Shown here: positions 39,601 through 54,516 of the stretch, piece after piece | Numbering within the stretch: position 1 is the first letter of the stretch | Layout of the letters: each line of letters starts with the position of its first letter | Assembly: GCA_038524545.1 (NCBI GenBank) | Contig: JBCBIK010000001.1 | Span: 39,001 to 103,000 of the forward strand | DNA from: Cyanobacteria bacterium J06623_4 | Lineage (GTDB): Bacteria; Cyanobacteriota; Cyanobacteriia; Phormidesmidales; Phormidesmidaceae | Length of the DNA stretch: 64,000 nt | Direction: 5' to 3' | Notes under the pieces: model-generated | What the model was told of the DNA's origin: nothing | The model's input: the letters and a program-made list of their open reading frames with translations, nothing else | Databases searched by the model: none | Position numbers and translations under genes: made by a program

Positions 39601-41289
39601 GGCGGTCAGCTGCCAGGGCGCAAGGTGTACCCGTGGATTGCCAAAGTGCGAAATTCTACGCCGGGCGTGGGACTGATTTCGCCGCCGCCGCACCACGATA
39701 TCTATTCGATCGAAGACTTGGCGGAGCTAATTCATGACCTGAAGAATGCAAACCGAGCAGCGCGGGTCAGCGTCAAGCTCGTTTCCGAGGTTGGGGTTGG
39801 CACCATTGCAGCAGGCGTCGCCAAGGCCCATGCCGATGTCGTGCTTATTTCTGGCTTTGATGGCGGTACGGGCGCATCACCCCAAACGTCGATTAAGCAT
39901 GCGGGTTTGCCTTGGGAGCTAGGGCTGGCAGAAACCCATCAGACGCTGGTATTGAACAATTTGCGCAGTCGCATTGTGATCGAGACCGATGGGCAGATGA
40001 AGACGGGGAGAGATGTTGCGATCGCAGCGCTCCTCGGGGCCGAAGAATTTGGCTTCAGCACCGCGCCCCTCGTCACCTTGGGCTGCATCATGATGCGCGT
40101 TTGCCACCTCAATACCTGCCCAGTGGGCGTCGCCACCCAAAATCCTGACCTGCGCAGCAAGTTTAACGGTGACCCTGCCTACACCGTGAACTTCATGAAA
40201 TTCATTGCGCAAGAAACCCGCGAAATTATGGCGGCGCTCGGCTTCCGCACCCTTGATGAGATGGTGGGCCGCACCGACATGCTCGCCCCCAAAACGGCCA
40301 TTGATCACTGGAAGGCCAAGGGCATCGACCTCACACCGCTGCTGCATCAGCCCAAAGTCGGGCCAGAAATCGGTCGCTACTGCACACAAGCGCAAGACCA
40401 CGGCCTCGACAAATCCCTTGACATCACTCGCCTGCTCGACATCTGCCAGCCCGCGATTGAAAAAGGCGAGCCGGTTGAGGCGACATTGCCCATTCGCAAT
40501 ATCCACCGCGTGGTGGGCACCATCGTGGGTAACGAAATTACCAAGCGGCACTGGGACGGTCTTCCACCAGACACCGTACAGCTCCACTTCCAGGGCACTG
40601 CCGGACAGAGCTTTGGGGCCTTTATCCCCAAGGGGATGACTCTGACACTCGAGGGCGATGCCAACGACTACTTGGGCAAGGGGCTCAGTGGTGGCAAAAT
40701 TATTCTCTTCCCACCACCGTCTTCACCGCTGGTCGCAGAAGACAATATCGTCACCGGTAATGTCGCCTTCTACGGTGCCACTAGCGGTGAGGCCTACATC
40801 AATGGCCAGGCCGGTGAGCGCTTCTGCGTGAGAAATTCTGGCGTTGAGGCGGTGGTAGAAGGGGTGGGCGACCACGGCTGTGAATATATGACCGGTGGCA
40901 AGGCGATTATCTTAGGTCGCACCGGGCGTAACTTTGCGGCGGGCATGAGCGGCGGCGTTGCCTACGTTCTCGACGAAGCCGGTGACTTTGCGACTCGCTG
41001 CAATACCGAAATGGTCGGGCTAGAGCGCGTCGAAACAGAGGCAGAAAGTAAGCTGCTGAGAGAGAAAATTCAGCGGCATGTGGACTACACCGGTAGCCCC
41101 AAGGCTAAATCTCTCTTGGCCGCTTGGGAAACAACCTTGCCCAAGTTTGTAAAAGTGATGCCCCGCGACTACAAACGCGTACTGCAGCACATTCAAAAAG
41201 CGCTCGATGCTGGCCTCAGTAACGACGAAGCCATGTCAGCCGCCTTCGAAGAAAATGCCAGAGACCTTGCCAGGGTTAGCGGCAGCTAA
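36643..41289 (+). CDS. gltB: Glutamate synthase large subunit
   Basis: 1548 aa. N-terminal amidotransferase Cys ([10 protein letters not shown]), FMN/Fe-S region ([22 protein letters not shown]) and a C-terminal GXGXG-type beta-helix. Confidence 0.95.
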
Positions 41290-41405
41290 GGCCACTAGCC
41301 ACAACAGAGTCGTCTGACAACAATCTCGTTTTATGACACTTACGGACAAATAGGCATCTCTATCACGCATCTGACAACAGCACTCCTCACAACACCAATA
41401 ACAAC

Positions 41406-42890
41406 ATGGGAAAACCAACTGGCTTTATTGAACATTTGCGGGAAGCTCCCTCAGAAATCTCTCCCAAAGATCGCATTCGCAACTGGGATGAGTTTCACCT
41501 GCCCATGCCCGAGGAGAATCTGCAAACCCAGGGCGCACGCTGCATGGACTGCGGCACCCCCTTTTGCCACACGGGTGAACTCATCAGCGGCATGGCCAGC
41601 GGCTGTCCGATCAACAATCTTATTCCCGAGTGGAATGACCTGATCTATCGTGGTCTCTGGAGAGAAGCTCTTGATCGCCTCCATAAAACCAACAACTTTC
41701 CAGAATTTACTGGGCGGGTTTGCCCGGCCCCCTGCGAAGGATCTTGCGTACTGGGCCTCACCAACCCGCCAGTGACGATCAAAAACATTGAATATTCCAT
41801 CATTGAAAAAGGCTGGGCTGAGGGCTGGATAGTCCCTCGCCCACCGGCGAAGAGAACCGGTAAGACCGTTGCTGTCGTAGGCTCTGGCCCGGCAGGCCTA
41901 GCCGCCGCCGACCAGCTAAACAAGGCCGGTCATACGGTGACGGTATACGAGCGGGCCAATCGTCCGGGCGGACTGCTGACCTATGGCATCCCCAACATGA
42001 AGCTCGACAAGCAGGACATCGTGCGACGTCGGCTGGACATTTTGGAAGCGGAAGGGATTACCTTTGTGTGCAACACAGAGGTTGGTCAAGACCTGCCTGC
42101 GGACAAACTGTTGAATGATTTCGATTCGGTTATTCTCTGTACGGGCTCTACCCGGCCAAGAGACTTACCGATTGAAGGCAGAGACCTCAAGGGCATTAAC
42201 TTTGCCATGGAATTTTTGACGGCGAACACCCAGGCGGTGCTGGATGGTCGGCCCGGCGACGACTATATCTCCGTAGCCGGTAAAGATGTGGTGATTATTG
42301 GCGGTGGTGATACGGGCACTGACTGTGTGGGCACTTCCATTCGTCAGGGCTGCAGAAGTATCAATCAGCTAGAGATTATGCCGAAGCCGCCGGAAATTCG
42401 CGCGGCTAGCAATCCTTGGCCTGAGTGGCCCAAAATCTATCGGCTCGACTACGGGCAAGAAGAGGCAAAGGCCCTCTTTGGGGATGACCCGCGTGCCTAT
42501 GTGAGAACTGCGACAAAGTTCGAGGGCGATGGCAATGGTAATGTTGCTGCTGTCCATACCGTAGAGGTGCAGTGGGAACGGGATGAGAACGGGCGGTTTA
42601 CACCTATTCACGTTCCGGGGAGTGAAATTGTAATGCCTGCGCAGCAGGTGCTGCTGGCTATGGGCTTCCTGGGACCTGAGTCGCCTTTGCTCGATGCTTT
42701 GGGCCTAGAGAAAACAAATCGCAGCAACATTAAGGCTGAGCATGAGGACTACAGAACGAACAAACCGGGCGTCTTTGCGGCGGGTGACTGTCGGCGAGGG
42801 CAGAGCCTGATCGTATGGGCGATTAATGAGGGGAGAGGGGTGGCACGGGAGTGTGATCGCTACCTCATGGGTGCAACCGAACTGCCCTAG
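41406..42890 (+). CDS. gltD: Glutamate synthase small subunit (NAD(P)H-dependent)
   Basis: Cys clusters ([18 protein letters not shown]) and dinucleotide folds ([27 protein letters not shown]). Confidence 0.93.
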
Positions 42891-43143
42891 CGCGAAGCTG
42901 TAGTAAAAGCTAATTCACATCCACACAAACACCGATATCTGCAGCTTGTCTGTTGCCTGTTCAGGCGATGTCATCTATGTAGCGTGACCTTTCGCTATCA
43001 CAATCATGTCTATCTATGGAAAGAGAGTGTCTATCCTGCCTGTAGGATAGACTGCCGACAAGCCGCCGAACAAAACTGCCTATAAATTGCCGACTTCAGG
43101 TAGCTGAACTCGGTAGCGACAAGCTAGCGGCTTATCGGAGTAG

Positions 43144-45057
43144 ATGAAACTAAGGGTAAAAATTCTCTCAGGTTACGTCGCCAGTCTAGCGCTCGTTGTG
43201 CTAATCGGGCTGTGGGGCGTTTTTAACCTGTGGCGACTAGGTAAAGCAAGCGAGGAGATTTTACAGGAGAATTATTTCAGCATTCGCGCTGCCGACAGTA
43301 TGGTCGACGCGCTAGAGCGTCAGGATAGTGCCACGTTGCTTTTACTGCTGAGCAGTTCAGCAGATAAGCTTGAGGAAGGTCTTGCACTATTTCGCGACAA
43401 CGAGGTGTCATTTTTGCAGGCACTGGCCAGGGCAAAAGATAACGTCACCACAGCAGAAGAACCTGAAGCCCTGAGAGCCCTAGAGAGTTCATACAAAAGC
43501 TATTTGGCTAGCGTAGATGGCCTGCTATCGGCAACAGATAGCAGCGCAACTGCGGGCCTTAACAAACTTGACCGATATGAACAAACGATCCGGCCAGCTT
43601 TTCAGATAGTGCGTGAGTCGGCTATTCGGTTGAGAGACATCAACCAAACTGCCATGACGGAAGCCTCCAGCCGAACGGCAATAATTTCGCAACGGGCTAT
43701 TCTTTCTGTTGCGATCGCCGGTTTTAGCGCGGCTGTCAGCGGATTTGTGATTAGCTGGATTCTCTCTCGCAATTTGGCTCGCCCCGTGCAGGCCATGCGC
43801 GGCGCAACCGCGCAGATAGCTGATGGTAACTACGATGTTCAGCTGGCGATCGCTTCCCGGGACGAGCTAGGTCAGCTCGCGGAAGAGATCAATGCCATGA
43901 GCAAACGACTTCAGGCTTTCAAAGCCTTGAATTTAGACAAAGTTGTTGCAGAAAAGCAGCGTGGGGAGGCTATTATCCACAGTCTCAGCGATGGTATTGT
44001 TGTTGTTGATGACCAGCTTCATATTATTGCTATTAACCCGGTGGCTGCGGCTATATTTGGTACCAAGCCTGGACTTGCTAAAGGTCGCCATTGTCTAGAA
44101 ATTGTTGAAAATCGTACACTATACCAGCAGATCCAGTCTGCAGCTAGCGAAGAGACAGCAGCTAACGCAAATGCCGCAGACACTGCCCTCTCCGGCAGCG
44201 GCGACCCAGCCGAGCTAAGCCTTGAGCGAGGGAACCGCACAGAGCACTATCAATACTTAGCTACGCCTGTCGTCGCCGCAGATCGCCGTCGATTGGGTGT
44301 TGTGCTGTTACTACAAAACGTCACAAACCTCAAGCAGCTCGACCAGCTCAAGAGCGAATTTGTAATGACCGCTTCTCACGAACTGCGGACGCCGCTCACT
44401 GGCATGGCGATGAGCATTGACCTCCTGATAGAAACCACGCAGGGTAAGCTATCAGAAGACGAACAGGCCCTACTCACTACCGCGCAGGAAGATGTGCAAC
44501 GCCTCAGGGCACTGGTGAACGATCTGTTAGATTTATCCAAAATAGAATCTGGCAAGATTGACATGGCGCAGGCCGCAACCCGGCCTGATGGGTTAGTCAG
44601 TAAGGCCATTGGCTTACTCCAGATTCAGGCCAACAAAAACAATGTTGAACTCGTTGCTCAGCTTTCGAGTAACCTGCCAGAAGTCAATGCCGACGCCAAT
44701 AAAATTACTTGGGTGCTTACCAACCTAATCGCCAATGCGCTGCGCTATGCCCGTAGCCGCATTGACGTGGCTACGCAGTCTCACGGAACTTGGGTCTCTA
44801 TCAGCGTCGTTGACGATGGACCCGGAATCGAGCCGGCCTATCAACGCAAAATATTTGACAAATTTGTGCAAGTCAAAACAGAGAAAGACGTTGGCGGTAC
44901 TGGGCTAGGACTGGCTATTTGTAAAGAAATAGTTCAAGCCCATGGCGGCAGAATTTGGGTTGAGTCAACCCCAGGTTATGGAAGTACCTTCACTTTCACA
45001 CTCCCAATTGTATCCCAGTCGTTCATTAAAAAGGAAACTGCTCATGCAACGCGATAG
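43144..45057 (+). CDS. Sensor histidine kinase (helical periplasmic sensor, HAMP, PAS, HisKA, HATPase_c)
   Basis: Two TM helices flank a helical sensor domain. H-box SHELRTPLT, N-box NLIANALRY and G-boxes DDGPGI and GGTGLGLAI. Confidence 0.9.
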   Translation: MKLRVKILSGYVASLALVVLIGLWGVFNLWRLGKASEEILQENYFSIRAADSMVDALERQDSATLLLLLSSSADKLEEGLALFRDNEVSFLQALARAKDNVTTAEEPEALRALESSYKSYLASVDGLLSATDSSATAGLNKLDRYEQTIRPAFQIVRESAIRLRDINQTAMTEASSRTAIISQRAILSVAIAGFSAAVSGFVISWILSRNLARPVQAMRGATAQIADGNYDVQLAIASRDELGQLAEEINAMSKRLQAFKALNLDKVVAEKQRGEAIIHSLSDGIVVVDDQLHIIAINPVAAAIFGTKPGLAKGRHCLEIVENRTLYQQIQSAASEETAANANAADTALSGSGDPAELSLERGNRTEHYQYLATPVVAADRRRLGVVLLLQNVTNLKQLDQLKSEFVMTASHELRTPLTGMAMSIDLLIETTQGKLSEDEQALLTTAQEDVQRLRALVNDLLDLSKIESGKIDMAQAATRPDGLVSKAIGLLQIQANKNNVELVAQLSSNLPEVNADANKITWVLTNLIANALRYARSRIDVATQSHGTWVSISVVDDGPGIEPAYQRKIFDKFVQVKTEKDVGGTGLGLAICKEIVQAHGGRIWVESTPGYGSTFTFTLPIVSQSFIKKETAHATR

Positions 45058-45709
45058 TACCCCCAACGCCAACATCTTAGTTGCCGATGATGAGAACAGC
45101 ATCCGATTAACAGTTAGCCAGGCGCTGTCTTCTCAAGGCTACGAAGTAATCACCGCCATTGACGGTAACACAGCCCTTGCACAGCTGCAGGATACATCTA
45201 TCGACCTGTTGCTTTTAGATATTCAGATGCCAGGAATGGATGGCATTGAAGTCTTGCAAAAAGCGATGGCTCAACAACCTGCCTTGAAGGTAATAATGAT
45301 TTCGGCTCATGGCTCGGTGGATAATGCTGTTGAAGCAATGAAACTAGGCGCTGTAGACTACTTGCAGAAACCCTTTACTCCCGGCGAACTCAGAGAGCTG
45401 GTCGACCGTGTACTGAGCAGAGAGGCGGTTGGTACAGAGGCGTACGATGAGCAGATTGCCTCTGCTCGGGTCCTAGCTGCAGAGGGCAAGTACGAAGATG
45501 CAAAGGCAGCGGTCAAGCAGTGCATCGGCGACCATCCCGAAAATGCCGCAGGTTTTAACCTACTTGGAGAGCTGTTAGAAGCGATGGGTGAGCAAGCTGA
45601 AGCGCTGAAGAACTATCGAGTGGCACTCGATCTAGATCCTACCTATACAGCTGCCAGCGACAACTTGAGTCGGGCTGCAATAGACCCGAAGTCAACGCCG
45701 AGCTTTTGA
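45044..45709 (+). CDS. Response regulator: receiver + C-terminal TPR, no DNA-binding domain
   Basis: Canonical REC (ILVADDE, LLLLDIQMPGMDG, ISAHG, QKPF) followed by TPR-like EGKYEDAKAAV...GEQAEALKNYRVALDLDP. The start overlaps the kinase stop by 14 nt. Confidence 0.85.
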   Translation: MQRDSTPNANILVADDENSIRLTVSQALSSQGYEVITAIDGNTALAQLQDTSIDLLLLDIQMPGMDGIEVLQKAMAQQPALKVIMISAHGSVDNAVEAMKLGAVDYLQKPFTPGELRELVDRVLSREAVGTEAYDEQIASARVLAAEGKYEDAKAAVKQCIGDHPENAAGFNLLGELLEAMGEQAEALKNYRVALDLDPTYTAASDNLSRAAIDPKSTPSF

Positions 45710-45839
45710 GACATAATACCAACTTTTTGATTTTTCTTAGATGCTTACCAGATACCCTACCCGGTATTGTCTATGTTTTTTTACCCGATGTCTGTCGCAA
45801 TATACGCAATATAAAGGGTCACCCACAGGAGTTTTAAAT

Positions 45840-46298
45840 ATGGTTTCTAATCTTTTGGGCGGCAATGCTAAAGGGGCCCAATACATCATCATTATTGGCT
45901 GCGGGCGGCTAGGCTCGCTTCTCGCAAGTCAGCTAAGCGCCCGGGGCAATAGCGTTGTTGTTATCGACCAGTATCAGGACAGCTTTGACAATCTTTCTGC
46001 CGAGTTTAGTGGATTTCAGCTAACTGGCAATGCAGTTGAGCTAGCAACGCTTCGTAGAGCAAAAGTCGATAGGGCAGACTGCCTTGTCGCTGTCACCCGA
46101 GAAGACAATGTCAACCTAATGGTGGCACAGATTGCCAAAACAGTGTTTGACATTCCTATTGTGCTAGCACGGGTATTTGATCCGGCTCGTGAGGCGATCT
46201 ATAAAGAGTTTGAAATTAATACGATCAGTCCAACGCAGCTGTCTGCTGATTTGTTTTTAAAGACGCTGGACACCCAATTTAAGCAGGTGACGAAATGA
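45840..46298 (+). CDS. RCK/TrkA-N domain protein (N-lobe only, intact GxGxxG)
   Basis: IIIIGCGRLGSLLA Rossmann motif. About 152 aa with no TrkA-C lobe. Confidence 0.8.
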   Translation: MVSNLLGGNAKGAQYIIIIGCGRLGSLLASQLSARGNSVVVIDQYQDSFDNLSAEFSGFQLTGNAVELATLRRAKVDRADCLVAVTREDNVNLMVAQIAKTVFDIPIVLARVFDPAREAIYKEFEINTISPTQLSADLFLKTLDTQFKQVTK

Positions 46299-46957
46299 GA
46301 ATAATTCTAGTGGGAACAGATAAGCTAATTTATTTTCTGGGGCGGCGATTTGTCACCAAAGGAGACTTTGTCACTATCATTACACCGGAACAGTTGGAGG
46401 CAACCTCGCTGTCGCGGCGACTGAAGGCGACGGTTATCGTTGGCGACGGTAGTGACCCTGCCGTGCTGCAGGAAGCAGGTGCTTATCAAGCCGACGCGCT
46501 GCTAGCTCTGACCGACCAAGACCAGGACAATCTTATCGCCTGTCAGATTGCTCAGGACCGCTATGGCGTTCCTCGCACCGTTGCAATTGTTAATGATCCA
46601 GATAATCGAGAGATTTTTGAATCGCTGGGTATCAGTTTGGCCTTCTCAGCTACTGAAATACTGGGATCTTTAATTGAGCAACAAACGGTCCCTTCTGAAA
46701 TCAAAAACCTTGTGCCTGTTACAGAAAGTGACGTTGTGATTACGGAAGTGGTTTTGAAAGTGGGTAGTCCTTCTATTGGTAAAGCGATCAAGGATTTGGG
46801 ACTCAGGGGCGCTACGGTTGCCTGTGTCGTCAGGCGCGGACACGTGCTTAAAGCCAATAGACGAATGTATCTGATGGAGGGCGATCGCATTCTGCTCATT
46901 AGTGAGGATGCTCGCTATGGTCAAGCGCAACAGGCACTCACCGGGGAGGGCTTGTAG
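46295..46957 (+). CDS. RCK/TrkA protein (N-lobe with degenerate Gly motif + TrkA-C lobe)
   Basis: The N-terminus IILVGTDKLIYFLG replaces GxGxxG. The C-terminal TrkA-C-like segment reads ITEVVLKVGSPSIGKAIKDLGL...GDRILLIS. ATGA start/stop overlap with the upstream gene. Confidence 0.8.
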   Translation: MRIILVGTDKLIYFLGRRFVTKGDFVTIITPEQLEATSLSRRLKATVIVGDGSDPAVLQEAGAYQADALLALTDQDQDNLIACQIAQDRYGVPRTVAIVNDPDNREIFESLGISLAFSATEILGSLIEQQTVPSEIKNLVPVTESDVVITEVVLKVGSPSIGKAIKDLGLRGATVACVVRRGHVLKANRRMYLMEGDRILLISEDARYGQAQQALTGEGL

Positions 46958-46960
46958 AAA

Positions 46961-48454
46961 ATGCGCTATCAAAGCTTTTTACGCCAGCGCTATCGAGCCG
47001 TATTAGGCTATACAGGACTAATTAGTGCGATCGCGGGACTGGCCATCCTATCGCCTTTGATTGCGCTGTTTGCCTATCCAGAAGAGGCTAGCTTGGCTTG
47101 GGGATTTCTACTGCCGGGTCTCTTCTTGAGCGGGCTCGGCGTGGTGACTTGGCAGCTCTTTAACCCTGGGAAAGCGGCGTCGCTTACGAAACAAGAGGGC
47201 GCGGTTATTGTGGTGCTCTCTTGGCTGCTGGCTATTTTAGTTGGTACCCTGCCCTTTTTAGCCATTACAGGCTTGACCTTTACGCAAGCTATGTTTGAAT
47301 CAACTAGCGGCTGGACAACTACTGGTCTCTCTGTGGTAGACGTGACGCAGGCCTCTCGGCTGATTTTGCTATATCGAAGCATTATGGAGCTGTTTGGAGG
47401 GGCTGGGTTAGCCATCATTACGCTCAGCGCAATTGCCGGTTCTGTGGGGGCTAGCCTCAGTAGCGCTGAAGGTCGCAGTGAGCAGCTCGCACCCAACGTT
47501 CGTCGATCTTCTAAGCTGGTCTTGATTATTTACAGTGGCTTGTGCGCGGTCGGAACCGTGGCGCTACGCATTTCTGGAGTCGGTTGGTTTGACGCAGTCA
47601 ATCACGCTTTTGCTGCGCTCTCTACTGGTGGTTTCTCTACCCGACCTGACTCTATCGGCTACTGGGATAGTCCCTTTGTTGAAGCGGTTACGATTGTGCT
47701 GATGCTATTCGGTGGACTGAATTTTGTCACCATCTATTTGTTGCTCACCGGTCAGCTAAAATCTGTTATTCGCAACGGGCAGGTACGACTGCAAGCAGTG
47801 CTCATTCCAATCGCAGCGATCGCGATTTTCTTCGGCTCGGCAGTTTCCCTGTATCCCACCTTTAGCAAAGCTGTCCGGGTGTCTATCTTTGAATCAGTGA
47901 CAGCCCTGACCACGACAGGATTTTCAACCGTGGGATACACAGACTGGAACAGCTTGCCTTGGCTAGTAATGATTGTACTGATGCTCGTTGGGGGCGGAGC
48001 CGGATCGACAGCAGGCGGAATTAAGCAGTTAAGGTTGTATATCCTGTATCGTTCTCTACTGTCCGAAACTCAAGAAATGCTGATGCCAAAAGGCGCCATC
48101 TGTGAAACTGAAATTTGGCAGGGAGAGCAACGTCATTTTTTACGGGCTGATCAAATTCGACAAGTGGCGCTGTTTATTTTTCTCTATCTAGCTGTGTTTC
48201 TCTTAGGCGCTTTTGTAATGACTGGCTATGGCTACTCAGTCCAAGAAAGTCTCTTTGAGTATGCCAGTACTATGGGCACAGTAGGCCTATCGATTGGGAT
48301 AACCGCTAGCGACGCGCCTGCTGGCGTTCTGTGGACGCAGATTGTTGGAATGTTTTTAGGTCGGTTAGAGTTCTTTACCGTGCTGATTGGTGTTGCCTGT
48401 GTGCTGAGAGACCTCCGTCCTATGTTGTTGAGCAAAGGAAAACAGGGAACATAA
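46961..48454 (+). CDS. TrkH/KtrB family potassium uptake membrane protein
   Basis: Four selectivity-filter-like segments (SGWTTTGLS, LSTGGFS, LTTTGFS, MGTVGLS) in a polytopic 497-aa protein. Confidence 0.88.
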   Translation: MRYQSFLRQRYRAVLGYTGLISAIAGLAILSPLIALFAYPEEASLAWGFLLPGLFLSGLGVVTWQLFNPGKAASLTKQEGAVIVVLSWLLAILVGTLPFLAITGLTFTQAMFESTSGWTTTGLSVVDVTQASRLILLYRSIMELFGGAGLAIITLSAIAGSVGASLSSAEGRSEQLAPNVRRSSKLVLIIYSGLCAVGTVALRISGVGWFDAVNHAFAALSTGGFSTRPDSIGYWDSPFVEAVTIVLMLFGGLNFVTIYLLLTGQLKSVIRNGQVRLQAVLIPIAAIAIFFGSAVSLYPTFSKAVRVSIFESVTALTTTGFSTVGYTDWNSLPWLVMIVLMLVGGGAGSTAGGIKQLRLYILYRSLLSETQEMLMPKGAICETEIWQGEQRHFLRADQIRQVALFIFLYLAVFLLGAFVMTGYGYSVQESLFEYASTMGTVGLSIGITASDAPAGVLWTQIVGMFLGRLEFFTVLIGVACVLRDLRPMLLSKGKQGT

Positions 48455-48939
48455 CCACAAAAGCTGTGGCTCAAAAGGGTGTTTCTAATACAGGATTTTT
48501 TTGATGCATGGTGGTTTTAATACGGGATGTTTTGAATAGGCTGATTGACGAGGCTACAGATTTTGCTGAATACGGCTCATGCCTTTGAAGGAAACAAAAA
48601 AAGAGAGAAAGCACAAAAAACTACATCTTTTAGTGCCAGTTTATAAATTGACACAGCGTCAATATGTCTGATTTATAACAGCCTGTTTCCGCAATTACTG
48701 GGTTGATAGTGGAATTGTATTAGTGAAAATACGAGCCCATGCTACCCACGCTTCACAATTGAAAAATGTCTTGATTCTCGGCAATTTTGCGGTCTTATGA
48801 TGGGTATAAAAGGGGCTTTCAGAGGGCCTTTTCGCAAGTCTTGAGTAAATATTGTGCGAAGCTTGCATAATCCGCTGCAAGTTGATTGCAAAATCAAACA
48901 AAATTGAACCATGGTGTCATTTACATAGAACATAAACCC

Positions 48940-49332
48940 ATGGTCGAGACGGTTTGCTTAACGATTGACTGGCGGGGGGCTGATAGTGAGCTGCCGGAGT
49001 CGCAGCAAGAGGCCTTTACGCAGACGCTGTACAGAGAGCTGCGATCGCTAGACTCGGTAGAAACGGTAGCCCGCGTGCCCGACCCAGCAGTCCCCGCGGG
49101 AGCGATGGGCGGACAGTGGCTCTGGAACATCCTTACGGCAGAGATTCCGGGCGACGGACTGCGACGGGCTTGCCAAGAAGTTTTTAGTCGGCTGTCGGCG
49201 CGGCAGATGGTGCTGACCATGGAAGTTGATGGACAGTCACAAAAAATCGATGCAAAAAACGTGCGGCCCGATGACTTCGATGAGGTCATCGATAAGCTCG
49301 TGGAGGCCGCGCAAAAAATGAAGTCGACCTAG
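48940..49332 (+). CDS. Small protein resembling effector-associated constant component EACC1
   Basis: The ATG at 48940 (MVETVCLTIDWRGADSELPES...) is preferred over the TTG track start 48886. The pattern of N-terminal beta strand, acidic loop, PAGAMGG, then VLTMEVDGQSQKIDAKNVRPDDFDEVIDKL matches my recollection of EACC1-family proteins. Not verified by search. Confidence 0.5.
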   Translation: MVETVCLTIDWRGADSELPESQQEAFTQTLYRELRSLDSVETVARVPDPAVPAGAMGGQWLWNILTAEIPGDGLRRACQEVFSRLSARQMVLTMEVDGQSQKIDAKNVRPDDFDEVIDKLVEAAQKMKST

Positions 49333-49495
49333 CCACCGGCTGGGTCAATTTGCTGAGTAACGAAGATGGCTGTAGAAGACTCGCTATCGGCATCACTCAT
49401 CTCTATCAAAATGACTCAAAAGCTTTTTCTCCAAGCCTTTTCTCGTTCCTATCGTCGCCCGTTTATCTTCAGTATCTACAGCACGCAGCCGTTCA

Positions 49496-51541
49496 ATGGT
49501 CAGAAAAATTGCATTACTGATTGGAGTTGGTGAGTATGGCACTGGGCTCAAACCGCTTCAGTGTCCGCTTAATGGGGTCGAAGCCATGGGCGCGGTTTTG
49601 GCCAATCCTGAGATTGGTGGATTTGACGAGGTGATTGCGCTGACCAATCCCAACGTGGGAGAAATGCGATCGCGCATATCAGAGATTTTTGCGCAGCTCA
49701 CCAAGCAAGACCTGATTCTCTTTTATTTCACCGGCCATGGTCTCAAAGACATGACGGGCGACTTCTATCTCACAACTAGCCAAACAGAACTCTTTTCGAG
49801 CGGGCGGCCCAATGCTGGAACCGCAGTAGAAGCAGACTTTTTGAGGCGAGAGCTGAGCAATGCCCGGGCTGAGAGAAAGGTGGTCATTTTAGACTGCTGC
49901 TTTGGGGCGGCGTTTGCCGATGGCTTTTTGACGATGAATGACAGCAGCATTGATATTGAAGCGCAGCTTGGCGGCAAGGGCTGGTGTGTGCTGACCGCTT
50001 CTACCTCCGTGCGCTACGCCCTCGAAGAAGACGGAGAGGCGCTCTCTGTGTACACCCGCTACCTAGTAGAAGGGCTTAAGACCGGTGGCGCGGCTCCCGA
50101 TGGGCAAAGTTACATCTCTGCGCAAAACTTGCATGAGTATGTAAAAGCGCAGGTAGAGGTGGCCGCCCCTGCCATGCAGCCCGCTATTTTCAACCGAGAG
50201 CAGGGCTATCAGATTGCGATCGCCAGCGTCCAAATCAACAACGAACAGCGCTATCGCAAGCAAGTACAAAAGAAAGTGCGCAATGGCACCATTGGCCCGG
50301 CAGGTATGGCCGTTCTTAGCCAGTGGCAGCAGCGCCTTGGCCTGTCGGATATTCAGGCAAAAGCCATTGAAGACGAAATTCTCCGGCCCTACAGAGAAAG
50401 GCAAAAGCACCTCGCACTCTACACCAAAGCTCTAGAAGCTGAAAAAACAGTCTCTTATCCTCTCAATGACATCGCCATTCAAGACCTTAAAGATCTTCAG
50501 CGGTTGCTCAGTTTACGAGATGAAGACGTGCAGGCTGTAGAGCAGCAGGTCCTGGGCCACAAGGCTCGGCCAGGCAACAACTCTTCAGCGCCGCCCCAGA
50601 TCGCTATACAGCCTGCTAAAAAGCCCACACGCACTGCAGCCACCCAGCGCTGGGTGCCCTCCGCTAGAGTCAAAGCAACGCCGACTGTTGCCGCGCGGTA
50701 TTCAACGTTTCGCTTCAAAACTGTTCGGGTAAATGCCCAGGGTGAGATTGTCAAAACCTCTCGACATGAGGCCAAAACATTTACTCAAGATCTCGGAAAG
50801 GGCATCTCAATGGAGATGGTACGCGTGCCCGGAGGCACTTTTAGAATGGGCGCGGCCAGAGGAGAAAAAGAAGCCAATGACAACGAGTACCCCCCGCGCG
50901 AAAAGAGAGTGTTTGACTTTTGGATGGGCAAGTACACCGTTACTCAGTCTCAGTGGAAAGCGGTGATGGGGCCAAAAGTGATTGCGCCGCAAGATGCGCC
51001 CTACACGGCCACCCGCATTAAAAAGCCCCTACAGCCGATTGAAAACATCTTTTGGACCGATGCTGTTGAATTTTGCCAGCGGCTCTCTCGGCAGACGGGC
51101 CGCACCTTTCAGCTGCCTAGCAGCAGCCAGTGGGAATATGCCTGCCGGGCCGGGACGACAACGCCATTTTGTTTTGGCGAGACCTTGACCCCGGATCTGG
51201 CCAACTACAATGGCAATTACAGCTACGGCCAAGGACCTAAGGGAAGATACCGAGAGAGCACCACCGAAGTTGGCTGCTTTCCGCCCAATGCCTTCGGCCT
51301 CTACGATATGCATGGCAATGTTTGGGAGTGGTGCCTAGACGGCTGGCAGGCGCTCGATCAAAACAACACGGCCAGTGGCAATATGCAAAGGCTCTCCGGG
51401 CAACAAAAGTCGCTGAGGGGTGGTAGCTGGTTTTATCTGCCGACAAACTGCCGCGCGGCCTATCGACTCACTTACCCATTTCATAATAGAACTGACGACA
51501 TTGGCTTTCGGGTGGTGTGCCTATCGCCGGAAGGTGCGTAG
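49496..51541 (+). CDS. Orthocaspase (peptidase C14) fused to a C-terminal FGE-sulfatase (SUMF1-like) domain
   Basis: Caspase dyad: FYFTGHG (His81, nt 49736-49738) and ILDCCFG (Cys134/135, nt 49895-49900). The central segment has helical LGLS..A..IE repeats. FGE motifs: RVPGGTFRMG, WEYACRAGT, HGNVWEWC, LRGGSW and IGFRVV. Confidence 0.9.
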   Translation: MVRKIALLIGVGEYGTGLKPLQCPLNGVEAMGAVLANPEIGGFDEVIALTNPNVGEMRSRISEIFAQLTKQDLILFYFTGHGLKDMTGDFYLTTSQTELFSSGRPNAGTAVEADFLRRELSNARAERKVVILDCCFGAAFADGFLTMNDSSIDIEAQLGGKGWCVLTASTSVRYALEEDGEALSVYTRYLVEGLKTGGAAPDGQSYISAQNLHEYVKAQVEVAAPAMQPAIFNREQGYQIAIASVQINNEQRYRKQVQKKVRNGTIGPAGMAVLSQWQQRLGLSDIQAKAIEDEILRPYRERQKHLALYTKALEAEKTVSYPLNDIAIQDLKDLQRLLSLRDEDVQAVEQQVLGHKARPGNNSSAPPQIAIQPAKKPTRTAATQRWVPSARVKATPTVAARYSTFRFKTVRVNAQGEIVKTSRHEAKTFTQDLGKGISMEMVRVPGGTFRMGAARGEKEANDNEYPPREKRVFDFWMGKYTVTQSQWKAVMGPKVIAPQDAPYTATRIKKPLQPIENIFWTDAVEFCQRLSRQTGRTFQLPSSSQWEYACRAGTTTPFCFGETLTPDLANYNGNYSYGQGPKGRYRESTTEVGCFPPNAFGLYDMHGNVWEWCLDGWQALDQNNTASGNMQRLSGQQKSLRGGSWFYLPTNCRAAYRLTYPFHNRTDDIGFRVVCLSPEGA

Positions 51542-52297
51542 GGTGAGGAGACTTGCGCCCAGCAGTGCTAGGGGTGCGATCGCACTCGGCTCAGGGACTC
51601 GATTCGCTCTAAACAGCATGGGTAAAGGTCCGGCAGCTGTGCCCGACTGCGCGTCACCAGCCGCAGCTGTGCCAGCTAGGCCGTAGGTACCACCGGGTCC
51701 GCTTGGGTTCCGATCGGTCTGCCAGAAAAAGGTGATTCGCTCGCCGCTGCTCCATTCAGCCAAGGTGGGAATTCGCCAGGCTAAGCCACCCTCCTCAGTT
51801 TCTTCGACGGTCGGTTCATTTTCGCTGCCGAGGGCTGAGTCTGCTTCAGAAAAGCTGTATCCGGCAACGCCGTTGAACCCTGTGGCTGGAAAGGCTAGGC
51901 GAAAGACTTCAGTCTCGCTGAGGGGAAGCACCGTCTCGGGCGCGGGGAAGGGCGGATCGTTTGGAAAATCGACACCGGGGATCACCACGTGAATGTAGGT
52001 GTAGGTGGTGTCAGCGGGGTTTTGGGGTGGCAAGCAGCTCACAAAGCCAGCAGGGCAAGCCACGCTGCTCACCAAGTCACCAATCCCTTCACCCTCCGCG
52101 TTAATAAAAGTAGCCTCGACTTCAGGTCCCACAGGGCCAACAATCTTTGCACCTAGGTTCAATTGATCAAAATCTTGAGGCTCTATGCCTTGGGGTACCA
52201 GCGCGGCGGCCTGCGCAGCCATCGGTAACATGCCAGTAGTGGCAGTAGCGCCAAATCCTACGCTGATTAACACTGTCGAAATTGAACAGATTTTCAT
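51521..52297 (-). CDS. Secreted PEP-CTERM sorting-domain protein
   Basis: N-terminal signal peptide. The C-terminus is VPEPSAIAPLALLGASLLTLRTFRR (PEP motif + TM + basic tail). The 3' end overlaps the caspase gene by 21 bp. Confidence 0.8.
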   Translation of the reverse strand: MKICSISTVLISVGFGATATTGMLPMAAQAAALVPQGIEPQDFDQLNLGAKIVGPVGPEVEATFINAEGEGIGDLVSSVACPAGFVSCLPPQNPADTTYTYIHVVIPGVDFPNDPPFPAPETVLPLSETEVFRLAFPATGFNGVAGYSFSEADSALGSENEPTVEETEEGGLAWRIPTLAEWSSGERITFFWQTDRNPSGPGGTYGLAGTAAAGDAQSGTAAGPLPMLFRANRVPEPSAIAPLALLGASLLTLRTFRR

Positions 52298-52414: not shown

Positions 52415-52765
52415 TCACAATACTTTTGCATCTTTGTGAGTGGCAGGCTCTGATGGTGGTTCTGAGGCGTATTTTTTCAAGAAACTTAAGCTACTGCCGA
52501 TGCTCAGCGCCGACAGCACGCTCCCTGCACTCATAAAGCTCAAGATACTGCCTGCGCTGCCAATGCTCAAAATACTGCCCGCACTACAAATGCTCAAAAC
52601 GCTGCCCGCGCTGCCAATACTCAACAAACTACCCACACTTCCTAAGCTCAAAATACTTCGATAGCTGCCCGCGCTCAGCACGCTCTCGGCTGGAGCAAGC
52701 TCGGTAATATGAGCCAGCTGCAGCAGGATAAGTTTGTTGAAAGCTGCTAATTCACCTAGTCGCAT
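52415..52765 (-). CDS. Hypothetical protein made largely of tandem nonapeptide repeats (consensus S-I-G-S-A-G-S-[IV]-L)
   Basis: The ORF lies on the same strand as both neighbours and 30-36 nt downstream of the kinase gene. The coding strand is inferred from context only, because the repeat keeps both strands open. Confidence 0.5.
   Translation of the reverse strand: MRLGELAAFNKLILLQLAHITELAPAESVLSAGSYRSILSLGSVGSLLSIGSAGSVLSICSAGSILSIGSAGSILSFMSAGSVLSALSIGSSLSFLKKYASEPPSEPATHKDAKVL
52538..52672. repeat. Tandem 27-bp (9-codon) repeat array, about 5 clear units
   Basis: Units start at 52538, 52565, 52592, 52619 and 52646 (GCTCAAAATACTGCCCGCGCTGCCAAT-like). More degenerate copies flank these. 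Confidence 0.8.
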
Positions 52766-52800
52766 AGACACTTAGTCACGTAGACACCTAGTAGAGAGTC

Positions 52801-54516
52801 TCAAGCGGTGATGGCTCCCGGATGGGTGTGTTGGTCGCTGCGCTGCCGCCGAAGCACCCAAGATAGAAAAAGACCTTCACATAGCGGGGCCAGCAGCAGC
52901 CAGCCTAACGTGCGAAGCGCACCTTGATTGATCATTTCAAACAAGATAGCGGTTAGCGGTACTGTACACAGGAACCACCAGTGTGCTCGGGGGGTGCGGC
53001 TTCGCAGAGCAGCCCACTGAACGATGCCTATCCATCCGCCCACTAGGGCACCGTTGAGTTCGCTGGTGTAGCCAGTTGCGATCGCCAGTGCAATCATCCA
53101 AAAACCGGCCACCGTCGCGGGTAGCCACCACAGCGCCCCCGGCAGCCACTTTCTAATCGCTAGCCACTGCGTAAACCCCACAAAAAAACCAGCAACCGGC
53201 CAGTGCATCCAATACAGCAGCGTCAAGGCCGAAGACACTTCTGCAGCGGACATGTTTGTCGGATTGGGGTGGGCGGAGAAAGTTAGGCCTGCTGTCATCA
53301 CCGCCGCTACCAAAAAGCCAACGGCCTGACCAATGTAGGAACGTATGCCATAGGTCATCCAGAAGCCAAGACTTACAGGCACTTTATGAATAGGTAACTT
53401 ACCCGGTGAGCGCGCAGGCGAGACCGCCTGAGTTGGGGCTAATTTGGCTGGGTTTTCGGGAGGCTGGCCGTTTGGAGCGTGTTTCTCGGCAGAGTGACTC
53501 TGCGAAGGTCGTTTACCTAGGGAGTGTTTTTCCGAAGTCTGTCCAATCGGAATCGCTGCTAGAGGTACACTACTCGGTCTCTTTTGAGCTGGCGATACGT
53601 TGGCAGAGCGCACAGGTCTCTTTGGAATGACGGGCTGTGGGGATAAGTCTTGCAGGACGGCAGCGGCAGTCGTGTAGCGCTGCTGGTCGTCTACAGCTAG
53701 TAGACGTGTGAGGATGGCGGTGAAGTCGGGGGTGAGCGATCGCTGCACGTATTTAGGCCAGTGCTGCACCCAGCGGTAGCCAGCCAGCGGCACTTCGCCG
53801 GTTTCTAAGGCTTGGCTCAGCAGCTGAAAACAGGTGGCCCCCAGGGCAAAGAGGTCGCTCGCCGGCGTGACTTTGCCCTGGATTTGCTCGGGGGCCGCGT
53901 ATCCGGGTGTGCCAATCGTGGTCGCCGACTTGGAAAAGCCCGACTGCTCTAAAACCTTAGCCACGCCAAAGTCAATCAATACCAGCTCGCCGCTGCGCCG
54001 CCGCATGATGTTATCGGGCTTAATATCGCGATGGATAACGCTGCGGCTATGCACAAACTGCAAAACTGGCAGCAGCCCCTGCAAAATCGCCCTCACTTTG
54101 CCCTCATCGAAGGGTCCTTCTCGCTGCAGCTCGGCCTGTAGCGTTTGCCCCTCGATCACCTCCTGCACTAGGTATAGGTAGCCGCCTTCTTGAAAGTAAG
54201 CCAGTAAGCGCGGAATTTGAGGATGCACAAGCTGATCGAGCCGCTCCGCTTCCTGCTCAAACAGCTGCCGGGCCTTCTCCTGCGACAGCTTATCGGTCCC
54301 TTGATAGGTCAGTCGCTTTACAACGCAGGGCTTGTTGCGATTGTCTAAATCTTCGGCGCGGTAGGTTTTGCCGAAGCCGCCTTGGCCCAAGAGCTGCAGT
54401 ACTTTGAACCGGTTGCGCAGGGTGAGCAGCCTGCCGCAGTACTGGCAGTGAAGGTTACCAGCAGGATTTTGAGGATGTGGACATGCAGGGTTTAGGCAAT
54501 AAATCATCGCAGGCAC
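52801..54516 (-). CDS. Ser/Thr protein kinase with N-terminal 4-Cys zinc-ribbon prefix and C-terminal polytopic membrane domain
   Basis: CLNPACPHP...CQYCG, then GQGGFGKTY, VVKRL, HRDIKPDN, DFGVAK and GTPGYAAPE. After a Pro/Ser-rich linker there are about 6 hydrophobic helices. Confidence 0.9.
   Translation of the reverse strand: MPAMIYCLNPACPHPQNPAGNLHCQYCGRLLTLRNRFKVLQLLGQGGFGKTYRAEDLDNRNKPCVVKRLTYQGTDKLSQEKARQLFEQEAERLDQLVHPQIPRLLAYFQEGGYLYLVQEVIEGQTLQAELQREGPFDEGKVRAILQGLLPVLQFVHSRSVIHRDIKPDNIMRRRSGELVLIDFGVAKVLEQSGFSKSATTIGTPGYAAPEQIQGKVTPASDLFALGATCFQLLSQALETGEVPLAGYRWVQHWPKYVQRSLTPDFTAILTRLLAVDDQQRYTTAAAVLQDLSPQPVIPKRPVRSANVSPAQKRPSSVPLAAIPIGQTSEKHSLGKRPSQSHSAEKHAPNGQPPENPAKLAPTQAVSPARSPGKLPIHKVPVSLGFWMTYGIRSYIGQAVGFLVAAVMTAGLTFSAHPNPTNMSAAEVSSALTLLYWMHWPVAGFFVGFTQWLAIRKWLPGALWWLPATVAGFWMIALAIATGYTSELNGALVGGWIGIVQWAALRSRTPRAHWWFLCTVPLTAILFEMINQGALRTLGWLLLAPLCEGLFLSWVLRRQRSDQHTHPGAITA

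Follow-up and report, generated by a model that had tools for sequence, protein, structure and literature searches.

EACC1-caspase systems and related modules

The closest described relatives of the gene pair reported here are the EACC1-protease modules of bacteria. In the classification of Kaur, Burroughs, Iyer and Aravind 2020 (PMC7159879), System 4 consists of an EACC1 gene followed on its 3' side by a gene for a caspase whose C-terminal domain varies, and an NTPase is not required. This system is enriched in multicellular or filamentous bacteria, is prevalent in actinobacteria, and occurs sporadically in proteobacteria. The pair described here is located in a 64,000-nt stretch of DNA from Cyanobacteria bacterium J06623_4 (contig JBCBIK010000001.1, positions 39,001 to 103,000 of the forward strand), and this whole stretch is referred to as the window. 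The pair encodes a small protein of 130 amino acids (aa) and a 681-aa protein, which consists of an N-terminal caspase domain, a helical linker, and a C-terminal domain similar to formylglycine-generating enzymes (FGEs) with a C-type lectin (CLec) fold.

One EACC1 system has been studied experimentally. The EACC1 protein of Ktedonobacter racemifer (KrEACC1) is cut near Asp49 by the adjacent caspase KrAvs12 (Evans et al. 2025, bioRxiv 10.1101/2025.11.14.688446). Of the KrEACC1 parts, the C-terminal fragment alone is toxic, and liposomes are made permeable by the cleaved protein. Both EACC1 and the catalytic Cys152 of the caspase are needed for toxicity, as the C152A mutant is inactive and deletion of EACC1 abolishes toxicity. 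The KrEACC1-KrAvs12 pair responds to a phage protein. The same study listed EACC1-protease modules linked to diversity-generating retroelements (DGRs), as well as EACC1-caspase fusions to DnaK-like chaperones, suggesting stress sensing. An initial annotation of the window, made from the sequence alone, knew of no experimental characterisation of such proteins, a statement that has been outdated since this work.

A second group of relatives is provided by the variable proteins of cyanobacterial DGRs, in which an orthocaspase is combined with a CLec domain (Vallota-Eastman et al. 2020, PMC7517822; Dore et al. 2024, PMC10907252). The 681-aa protein has the same caspase plus CLec/FGE-like architecture. 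In the passages of Vallota-Eastman et al. 2020 that deal with these proteins, both orthocaspase-CLec variable proteins and their non-diversified paralogues are already described, remote DGR targets in cyanobacteria are reported, and signalling roles are favoured. The same passages contain the speculation that the retroelement is lost after a good variant has been found. An upstream small gene is not mentioned in these relevant passages, and EACC1 is not mentioned in the main text of Dore et al. 2024.

Organization and conservation of the gene pair

Judged from its sequence, the window pair is a genuine and well-conserved EACC1-caspase two-gene module corresponding to System 4 of Kaur et al. 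2020. The small gene lies upstream of the caspase gene, with both on the + strand and 163 nt apart, as the initial annotation had read from the open reading frame (ORF) coordinates. This arrangement resembles that of KrEACC1-KrAvs12, in which a small EACC1 gene directly precedes a gene encoding an N-terminal caspase with GHG and DCCF motifs. The small gene is positioned directly 5' of the caspase-linker-FGE gene in locus L001 and in nearly all of the 32 cyanobacterial loci, wherever the contig leaves room, which agrees with the synteny with caspase genes that had been proposed as a check. The flanking genes vary among the loci carrying the pair.

More distant relatives of the small protein, with 24-29% identity, are encoded upstream of a caspase-EAL gene (L034) and of a caspase gene with another tail (L036), and the caspase of L029 is without the FGE domain. 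A constant small component combined with a variable caspase tail is the defining pattern of the Kaur et al. 2020 system. The likeness to System 4 therefore includes the gene layout, the dispensable NTPase, and the FGE-like, EAL, and other tails that the relatives carry on a constant caspase. The pair had been regarded as a minimal two-gene variant because it lacks an NTPase, but this is the canonical form according to Kaur et al. 2020. Unlike System 4 as described, the window pair belongs to a cyanobacterial branch in which most small proteins score under the Pfam threshold and the predicted conserved transmembrane helix is not evident.

The small ORF is a real gene under purifying selection, because it has 52 homologues at E <= 1e-31, 25 invariant columns in an alignment of 34 sequences, and a ratio of nonsynonymous to synonymous substitution rates (dN/dS) of 0.06 against its closest relative, L002. 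A TTG codon at 48886 would extend the protein to 148 aa; the homologues begin at the ATG-encoded Met. In relatives, the two genes are separated by about 20 to 290 nt. No terminator-like site or hairpin was found in the 163-nt spacer of the window, and an Rfam scan of 48400-51800 gave no match. A promoter and terminator scan returned counts not above those of shuffled sequence and was uninformative. The two genes are presumably co-transcribed.

Additional and rearranged copies of the pair were observed in several relatives. Two complete pairs are arranged in tandem in L027 (6001-12129), and the caspase-FGE gene is followed by a further small gene in L016, L026, and L028. In L033 (6001-7718), the small gene is fused at codon ~51 to the caspase at residue ~118, and an Avd remnant lies downstream. 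These tandem and decayed copies indicate duplication and turnover of the pair.

Caspase domain

The caspase domain matches the NCBIfam model NF047832 (caspase, EACC1-associated type) with 158.5 bits against a cutoff of 140, covering model positions 3-209 of 211. The same model is passed by the caspases of L034 and L036, which stand beside the distant small-protein relatives, by the caspase of the DGR-linked locus L018, and by that of L029, in which the FGE domain is missing. NF047832 is likewise the best match of the KrAvs12 caspase, at 83.2 bits, and the caspase cores of the window protein and KrAvs12 are 31% identical. A phmmer search of the caspase domain against the PDB gave no match at E <= 0.01.

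The His/Cys dyad is intact, as had been noted from the FTGHG and DCCFG motifs. The latter motif contains Cys134 and Cys135. The initial annotation selected Cys134 as the catalytic residue to be mutated; alignment with Cys152 of KrAvs12 points to Cys135 as the predicted catalytic residue, and Cys135Ala, or replacement of both cysteines, would be the apt control. This assignment is one of the modest points in which the analysis goes beyond the literature compared.

Small protein and its predicted cleavage loop

Direct scans of the window small protein with Pfam, PADLOC, and NCBIfam did not match EACC1, and the assignment to this family was therefore made through homologues, fold, partner type, and synteny. 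The Pfam EACC1 model is matched by 6 of the 34 close homologues, with a best E of 2.1e-6. The homologues P0029 and P0031 share 68% identity with the window protein and reach 28.1 bits (cutoff 23.6; model positions 4-105 of 107), and the experimentally studied KrEACC1 scores 28.2 bits on the same model. A family profile search of 1.84 billion representatives retrieved 90 proteins. Among the 64 distant relatives scanned, EACC1 was matched by 8 (E <= 0.001), and 2 were TRADD-N fusions. The proposal that the small gene is EACC1-like and forms a conflict or programmed-death module with the caspase is thus borne out by the profile matches of homologues, by NF047832, and by synteny. The profile searches suggested at the same time agree for the caspase (NF047832, Pfam) and the FGE-sulfatase domain; for EACC1 they succeed with the 68%-identical homologues, though not with the window protein itself.

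Structural models made with AlphaFold2 (AF2) reached a predicted local distance difference test score (pLDDT) of 81 for the window small protein and 84 for KrEACC1. Both models have the element order β-α-β-loop-β-α-β-β-α (eight elements), where the comparison refers to the order of secondary structures and not to a superposition of the models. The block of lowest pLDDT in both is the loop in which KrEACC1 is reportedly cut. The window model displays the expected two-half fold, with an N-terminal part and an exposed loop between the halves. Its loop, aa 48-59, corresponds to loop 42-52 of KrEACC1, which holds the reported cleavage site Asp49. The two systems resemble each other in predicted element order, in the exposed loop at the cut site, and in caspases that match NF047832 best. 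A Foldseek search of the small-protein model against the PDB retrieved generic ferredoxin-like folds only, with template modelling (TM) scores <= 0.52.

P52, G54, M56, and G57 are invariant in the close family. An assignment of the scissile bond from conservation was tried and proved ambiguous, as Arg45 is conserved in 49 of 57 proteins but lies within strand 2, position 56 is Met, and Asp48 stands before Pro. Kaur et al. predicted a conserved transmembrane helix with a central patch of small residues, and no such helix was found in the window small protein. A Gly-rich patch, G54-x-M56-G57, is conserved, but it is located ahead of an amphipathic strand. The window small protein appears to belong to a low-hydrophobicity branch of EACC1 that profile models mostly miss, which is a modest addition to the published literature compared.

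FGE-like domain and its fixed tip

The FGE-like domain has PvdO, the Treponema DGR target TvpA, and FGEs as its closest solved relatives. In an alignment with the T. curvata and human FGEs, Tyr647 occupies the position of the first copper-binding Cys and Cys652 alone is kept, as in TvpA. The FGE motif GGS-x-x-C-x-x-x-x-C with two copper-binding cysteines is thus not present in the window domain. A catalytic FGE was rejected on this ground, and the domain, although full length, is probably a binding domain rather than an FGE. The initial description of a complete FGE/SUMF1-like domain is therefore correct as to length, but not as to the copper site.

The two helical repeats described earlier in the middle region are real in statistical terms, with a local score of 38 against 22.2 +/- 4.2 for shuffles, a score reached in 1 of 500 shuffles. 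A Pfam scan of this 200-aa region, including the repeats, gave no family. Its first ~130 aa are conserved in relatives, and the remainder is variable in length. The orthologue in L018 (6459-8924) is 821 aa long. After its helical linker and ahead of the FGE-like domain, it has roughly 140 additional residues that are missing in the window protein.

The relatives L018 (Leptolyngbya sp. Heron Island J) and L024 carry, downstream of the pair, an Avd-like gene, a reverse transcriptase (RT), and a 123-nt template repeat (TR). In each of these loci, 15 of the 16 differences between the TR and the variable region (VR) are at TR adenines. This pattern is the signature of an active DGR acting on the last ~35 codons. 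Hypermutation of the tip in sister lineages is characteristic of a binding site, and it indirectly supports the early proposal that the FGE-like domain is a ligand sensor.

The window clade is different from the cyanobacterial DGR variable proteins, because its tip is fixed and no retroelement was found in 64 kb. A search for TR, RT, and Avd in the 64-kb window found none, and the VR-equivalent of the window gene did not match the TRs of L018 and L024. The window gene was rejected as a local DGR target, since TR, RT, and Avd are all missing from the window. Several hypervariable relatives are also without an adjacent RT within 6 kb.

The tip was compared in 25 full-length proteins, of which 16 loci belong to the window clade and 9 to the DGR/hypervariable group. 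In the window clade, no part of the domain is more conserved than the tip, whose column entropy is 0.33 versus 0.99 for the rest of the domain. In the hypervariable group, it is the most variable part (1.30 versus 0.79). The window and L012 differ at 30 nt in the 105-nt tip and at only 2 aa. A neighbour-joining tree of caspase domains, rooted with L034 and L036, recovered the fixed clade as monophyletic in 94 of 100 bootstraps. In this neighbour-joining tree, the fixed clade is nested within a paraphyletic grade of hypervariable lineages, which suggests that the fixed tip is the derived state. The presence of a fixed-tip clade beside DGR-diversified sisters, as these alignments portray it, goes modestly beyond the literature compared.

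Proposed mechanism and alternative explanations

The pair is probably an EACC1-caspase abortive-infection or cell-suicide module with a mechanism of four steps. The 130-aa protein would be a latent toxin, in which the N-terminal β-α-β half (aa 1-47) keeps the C-terminal half (aa 60-130) as an inactive monomer. The 681-aa protein would be a sensor-protease, whose C-terminal CLec-fold domain binds a specific cytoplasmic ligand, a phage component being the likeliest candidate. Once this ligand is bound at the lectin-fold tip, caspase domains would be brought together and the His81/Cys135 site rendered active, after which the caspase would cut the small protein in the exposed loop of aa 48-59. The freed C-terminal fragment (aa ~60-130) may then oligomerise and damage the membrane, so that the cell is killed or arrested. 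Sister lineages re-randomise the lectin tip by DGR, whereas the fixed tip of the window protein would recognise one constant ligand. The sequences show the gene pair, its domains and family, the conserved synteny, the purifying selection, and the contrast between DGR-diversified and fixed tips; cleavage, toxicity, membrane action, and activation by a ligand are inferred from homology with KrEACC1-KrAvs12. The sensor differs from that of KrAvs12, which is a STAND ATPase sensor (Avs12), in being an ATPase-free CLec/FGE-like domain. Should the EACC1 model prove right, the module would share its logic with bacterial gasdermin-protease systems, in which a protease frees a small pore-former from autoinhibition, a parallel drawn by Evans et al. 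2025. Gasdermins are unrelated to the window small protein in fold and family.

Several observations weigh against this mechanism. The window small protein has no match to Pfam EACC1 (PF19953) at E <= 1, and its sole weak Pfam match is to EAD1 in the C-terminal half, below threshold at 0.015. Similarity in sequence alone between the window small protein and KrEACC1 is not significant. In hhalign comparisons, the wider family profile aligned collinearly with the Kr family at a non-significant probability of 1.7% (E 0.029), the Kr family being shallow with 8 proteins, and the close-family profile against the single KrEACC1 sequence gave a probability of 0.3%, also not significant. Asp49 of KrEACC1 has no clear counterpart in the window. 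Its loop of aa 48-59 contains zero Arg or Lys and one Asp (Asp48, then Pro), and position 56 is Met in the window and Lys in most wider relatives. The maximum Kyte-Doolittle hydropathy over 19 residues is 0.65 for the window small protein versus 1.71 for KrEACC1, which has a strongly hydrophobic segment. Because this segment of canonical EACC1 is missing here, membrane insertion may differ or may not occur. In addition, there is no defence island around the pair, whose neighbours are housekeeping or signalling genes. Some close relatives share downstream genes, which together with the fixed tip would also fit recognition of an endogenous signal.

The last two observations lead to the strongest alternative, which is nonetheless unlikely. 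The same module may serve as a non-antiviral cell-death switch, or as a stress or differentiation switch, of a filamentous cyanobacterium. The fixed lectin-fold domain would respond to a constant ligand of the cell itself, for instance a signal from the cell envelope or from metabolism, and the pair would lyse selected cells. This explanation is consistent with a fixed tip that is under strong purifying selection and occurs in at least 16 genomes, with housekeeping and signalling flanks, and with the shared downstream genes of some close relatives, which suggest vertical inheritance. The chaperone fusions of EACC1-caspases (Evans et al. 2025) suggest stress sensing, and the signalling roles favoured in the passages of Vallota-Eastman et al. 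2020 on orthocaspase-CLec proteins point in the same direction. However, DGR hypermutation of the same tip in sister lineages is more readily explained by an arms race than by a self ligand that stays constant. Varied genomic contexts and tandem and decayed copies are typical of defence genes, and the sole experimental EACC1 system answers a phage protein.

A second and clearly less probable alternative retains part of the initial annotation, in which the small protein was an obligate partner or inhibitor. It would act like an adaptor or antitoxin, and the caspase would act on other cellular substrates or on itself. The experiments on the Kr system speak against such a role, as EACC1 deletion ends toxicity there, EACC1 is a substrate of the caspase, and its C-terminal fragment is toxic by itself. 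The window small protein shares with KrEACC1 the order of secondary structures and the exposed inter-domain loop. The strict gene pairing would fit a partner or inhibitor, the low hydrophobicity of the window branch weakens the pore model, and the sub-threshold match in the C-terminal half is to EAD1, an adaptor domain. By homology with KrEACC1, which its caspase cuts to yield a toxic C-terminal fragment, the small protein is more likely a protease substrate and death effector than an inhibitor. A third proposal, in which a retroelement elsewhere in the genome still diversifies the FGE-like domain in trans, or in which this domain is an active formylglycine-generating or sulfoxide-synthase-type enzyme and not a sensor, is very improbable: remote DGR targets are known in cyanobacteria from the passages cited above, several hypervariable relatives have no RT within 6 kb, and 64 kb of the genome is in view, but within the clade the VR-equivalent is conserved more strongly than any other stretch of the domain (30 nt versus 2 aa differences), it does not match the L018 and L024 TRs, and Tyr647 replaces one copper-binding Cys as in the non-enzymatic DGR target TvpA.

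Features and genomic surroundings

The features of the pair are collected in Table 1.

Table 1. Coordinates of the EACC1-caspase pair and its elements in the window
Feature	Position	Strand	Basis
EACC1-family small protein gene, 130 aa, predicted latent effector	48940..49332	+	ORF, homologues, dN/dS, profile, AF2
Surface loop between strand 2 and strand 3, codons 48-59 (DPAVPAGAMGGQ), predicted proteolytic cleavage region	49081..49116	+	Lowest AF2 pLDDT
Spacer, 163 nt, separating small gene and caspase gene	49333..49495	.	
Caspase / helical linker / FGE-like (CLec fold) protein gene, 681 aa	49496..51541	+	
Caspase (Peptidase_C14), EACC1-associated type, aa 3-223	49502..50164	+	Pfam 3.2e-16; NF047832
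Catalytic His81 codon (FTGHG)	49736..49738	+	Alignment, motif
Predicted catalytic Cys135 codon (second Cys of DCCFG)	49898..49900	+	Aligns with KrAvs12 Cys152
Two helical repeats, aa 274-296 and 331-353, possible oligomerisation or linker element	50315..50554	+	Local alignment
FGE-sulfatase-like / CLec fold domain, aa 440-674, predicted ligand sensor	50813..51517	+	Pfam 2e-50
DGR variable region equivalent, aa 640-674, LRGGSWFYLPTNCRAAYRLTYPFHNRTDDIGFRVV, fixed in window clade	51413..51517	+	Homologous to L018/L024 VRs

Upstream of the pair, the window contains genes for a sensor kinase, a response regulator with tetratricopeptide repeats (TPRs), and TrkA, TrkA, and TrkH. A 5.7-kb block at 42890-48628 is missing at the same site in L002, which is ~90-95% identical and has matching flanks (41080-42889 and from 48629 onward). 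This block encodes the sensor histidine kinase, the response regulator with TPRs, the two TrkA proteins, and TrkH. At this site, a potassium-uptake and two-component cassette was recently inserted or deleted. The end of the histidine-kinase ORF and the listed response-regulator ORF have 116 nt in common (44942-45057). The true start of the response regulator is probably an internal Met, because the receiver domain begins only at aa 45 of the ORF.

Downstream, on the opposite strand, the window encodes a PEP-CTERM-like protein, a repeat-rich 118-aa ORF, a Ser/Thr kinase, and a phosphomannomutase. The first of these is a 258-aa ORF (51521-52297, -) that has no Pfam match and whose C-terminus (VPEPS, a hydrophobic stretch, and RR) is PEP-CTERM-like by eye. 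It is convergent with the caspase gene, with 3' ends overlapping by 21 nt, and is conserved in L002, L003, and L028. The 118-aa ORF (52415-52771, -) consists mostly of SAGSILSIGSAGS-type repeats and belongs to no Pfam family, yet L002, L003, L006, and L010-L012 have it conserved in the same location behind the module. The N-terminus of the Ser/Thr protein kinase (52801-54516, -; Pfam Pkinase 2.4e-43) is rich in Cys, and its C-terminal region is long and hydrophobic. Conserved copies of the kinase gene follow the module in L002, L003, L010, and L012, and there is no evidence for a functional tie to the pair.

Evolutionary and functional significance

With the mechanism outlined above, an experimentally grounded mode of action can be assigned to a cyanobacterial pair whose small component is publicly labelled as a hypothetical protein. 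It is conceivable, at somewhat less than even chances, that the window clade is a 'frozen' descendant of a DGR-diversified immune sensor. One specificity, with the motif YLPxNCRxAYxLxYPFHxRxDD, would have been settled, the retroelement lost, and the result maintained by purifying selection in many marine filamentous cyanobacteria. Its effector, having lost the hydrophobic segment, might kill by a different route.

The coexistence of fixed and DGR-diversified sensors on the same type of protein provides a tractable case for ligand recognition by the lectin fold, and for how diversifying receptors become fixed. A frozen sensor of this kind is an illustration rather than a new principle. If the interpretation is true, the window clade would show how, in nature, an anticipatory diversifying receptor has turned into a germline-fixed innate receptor.

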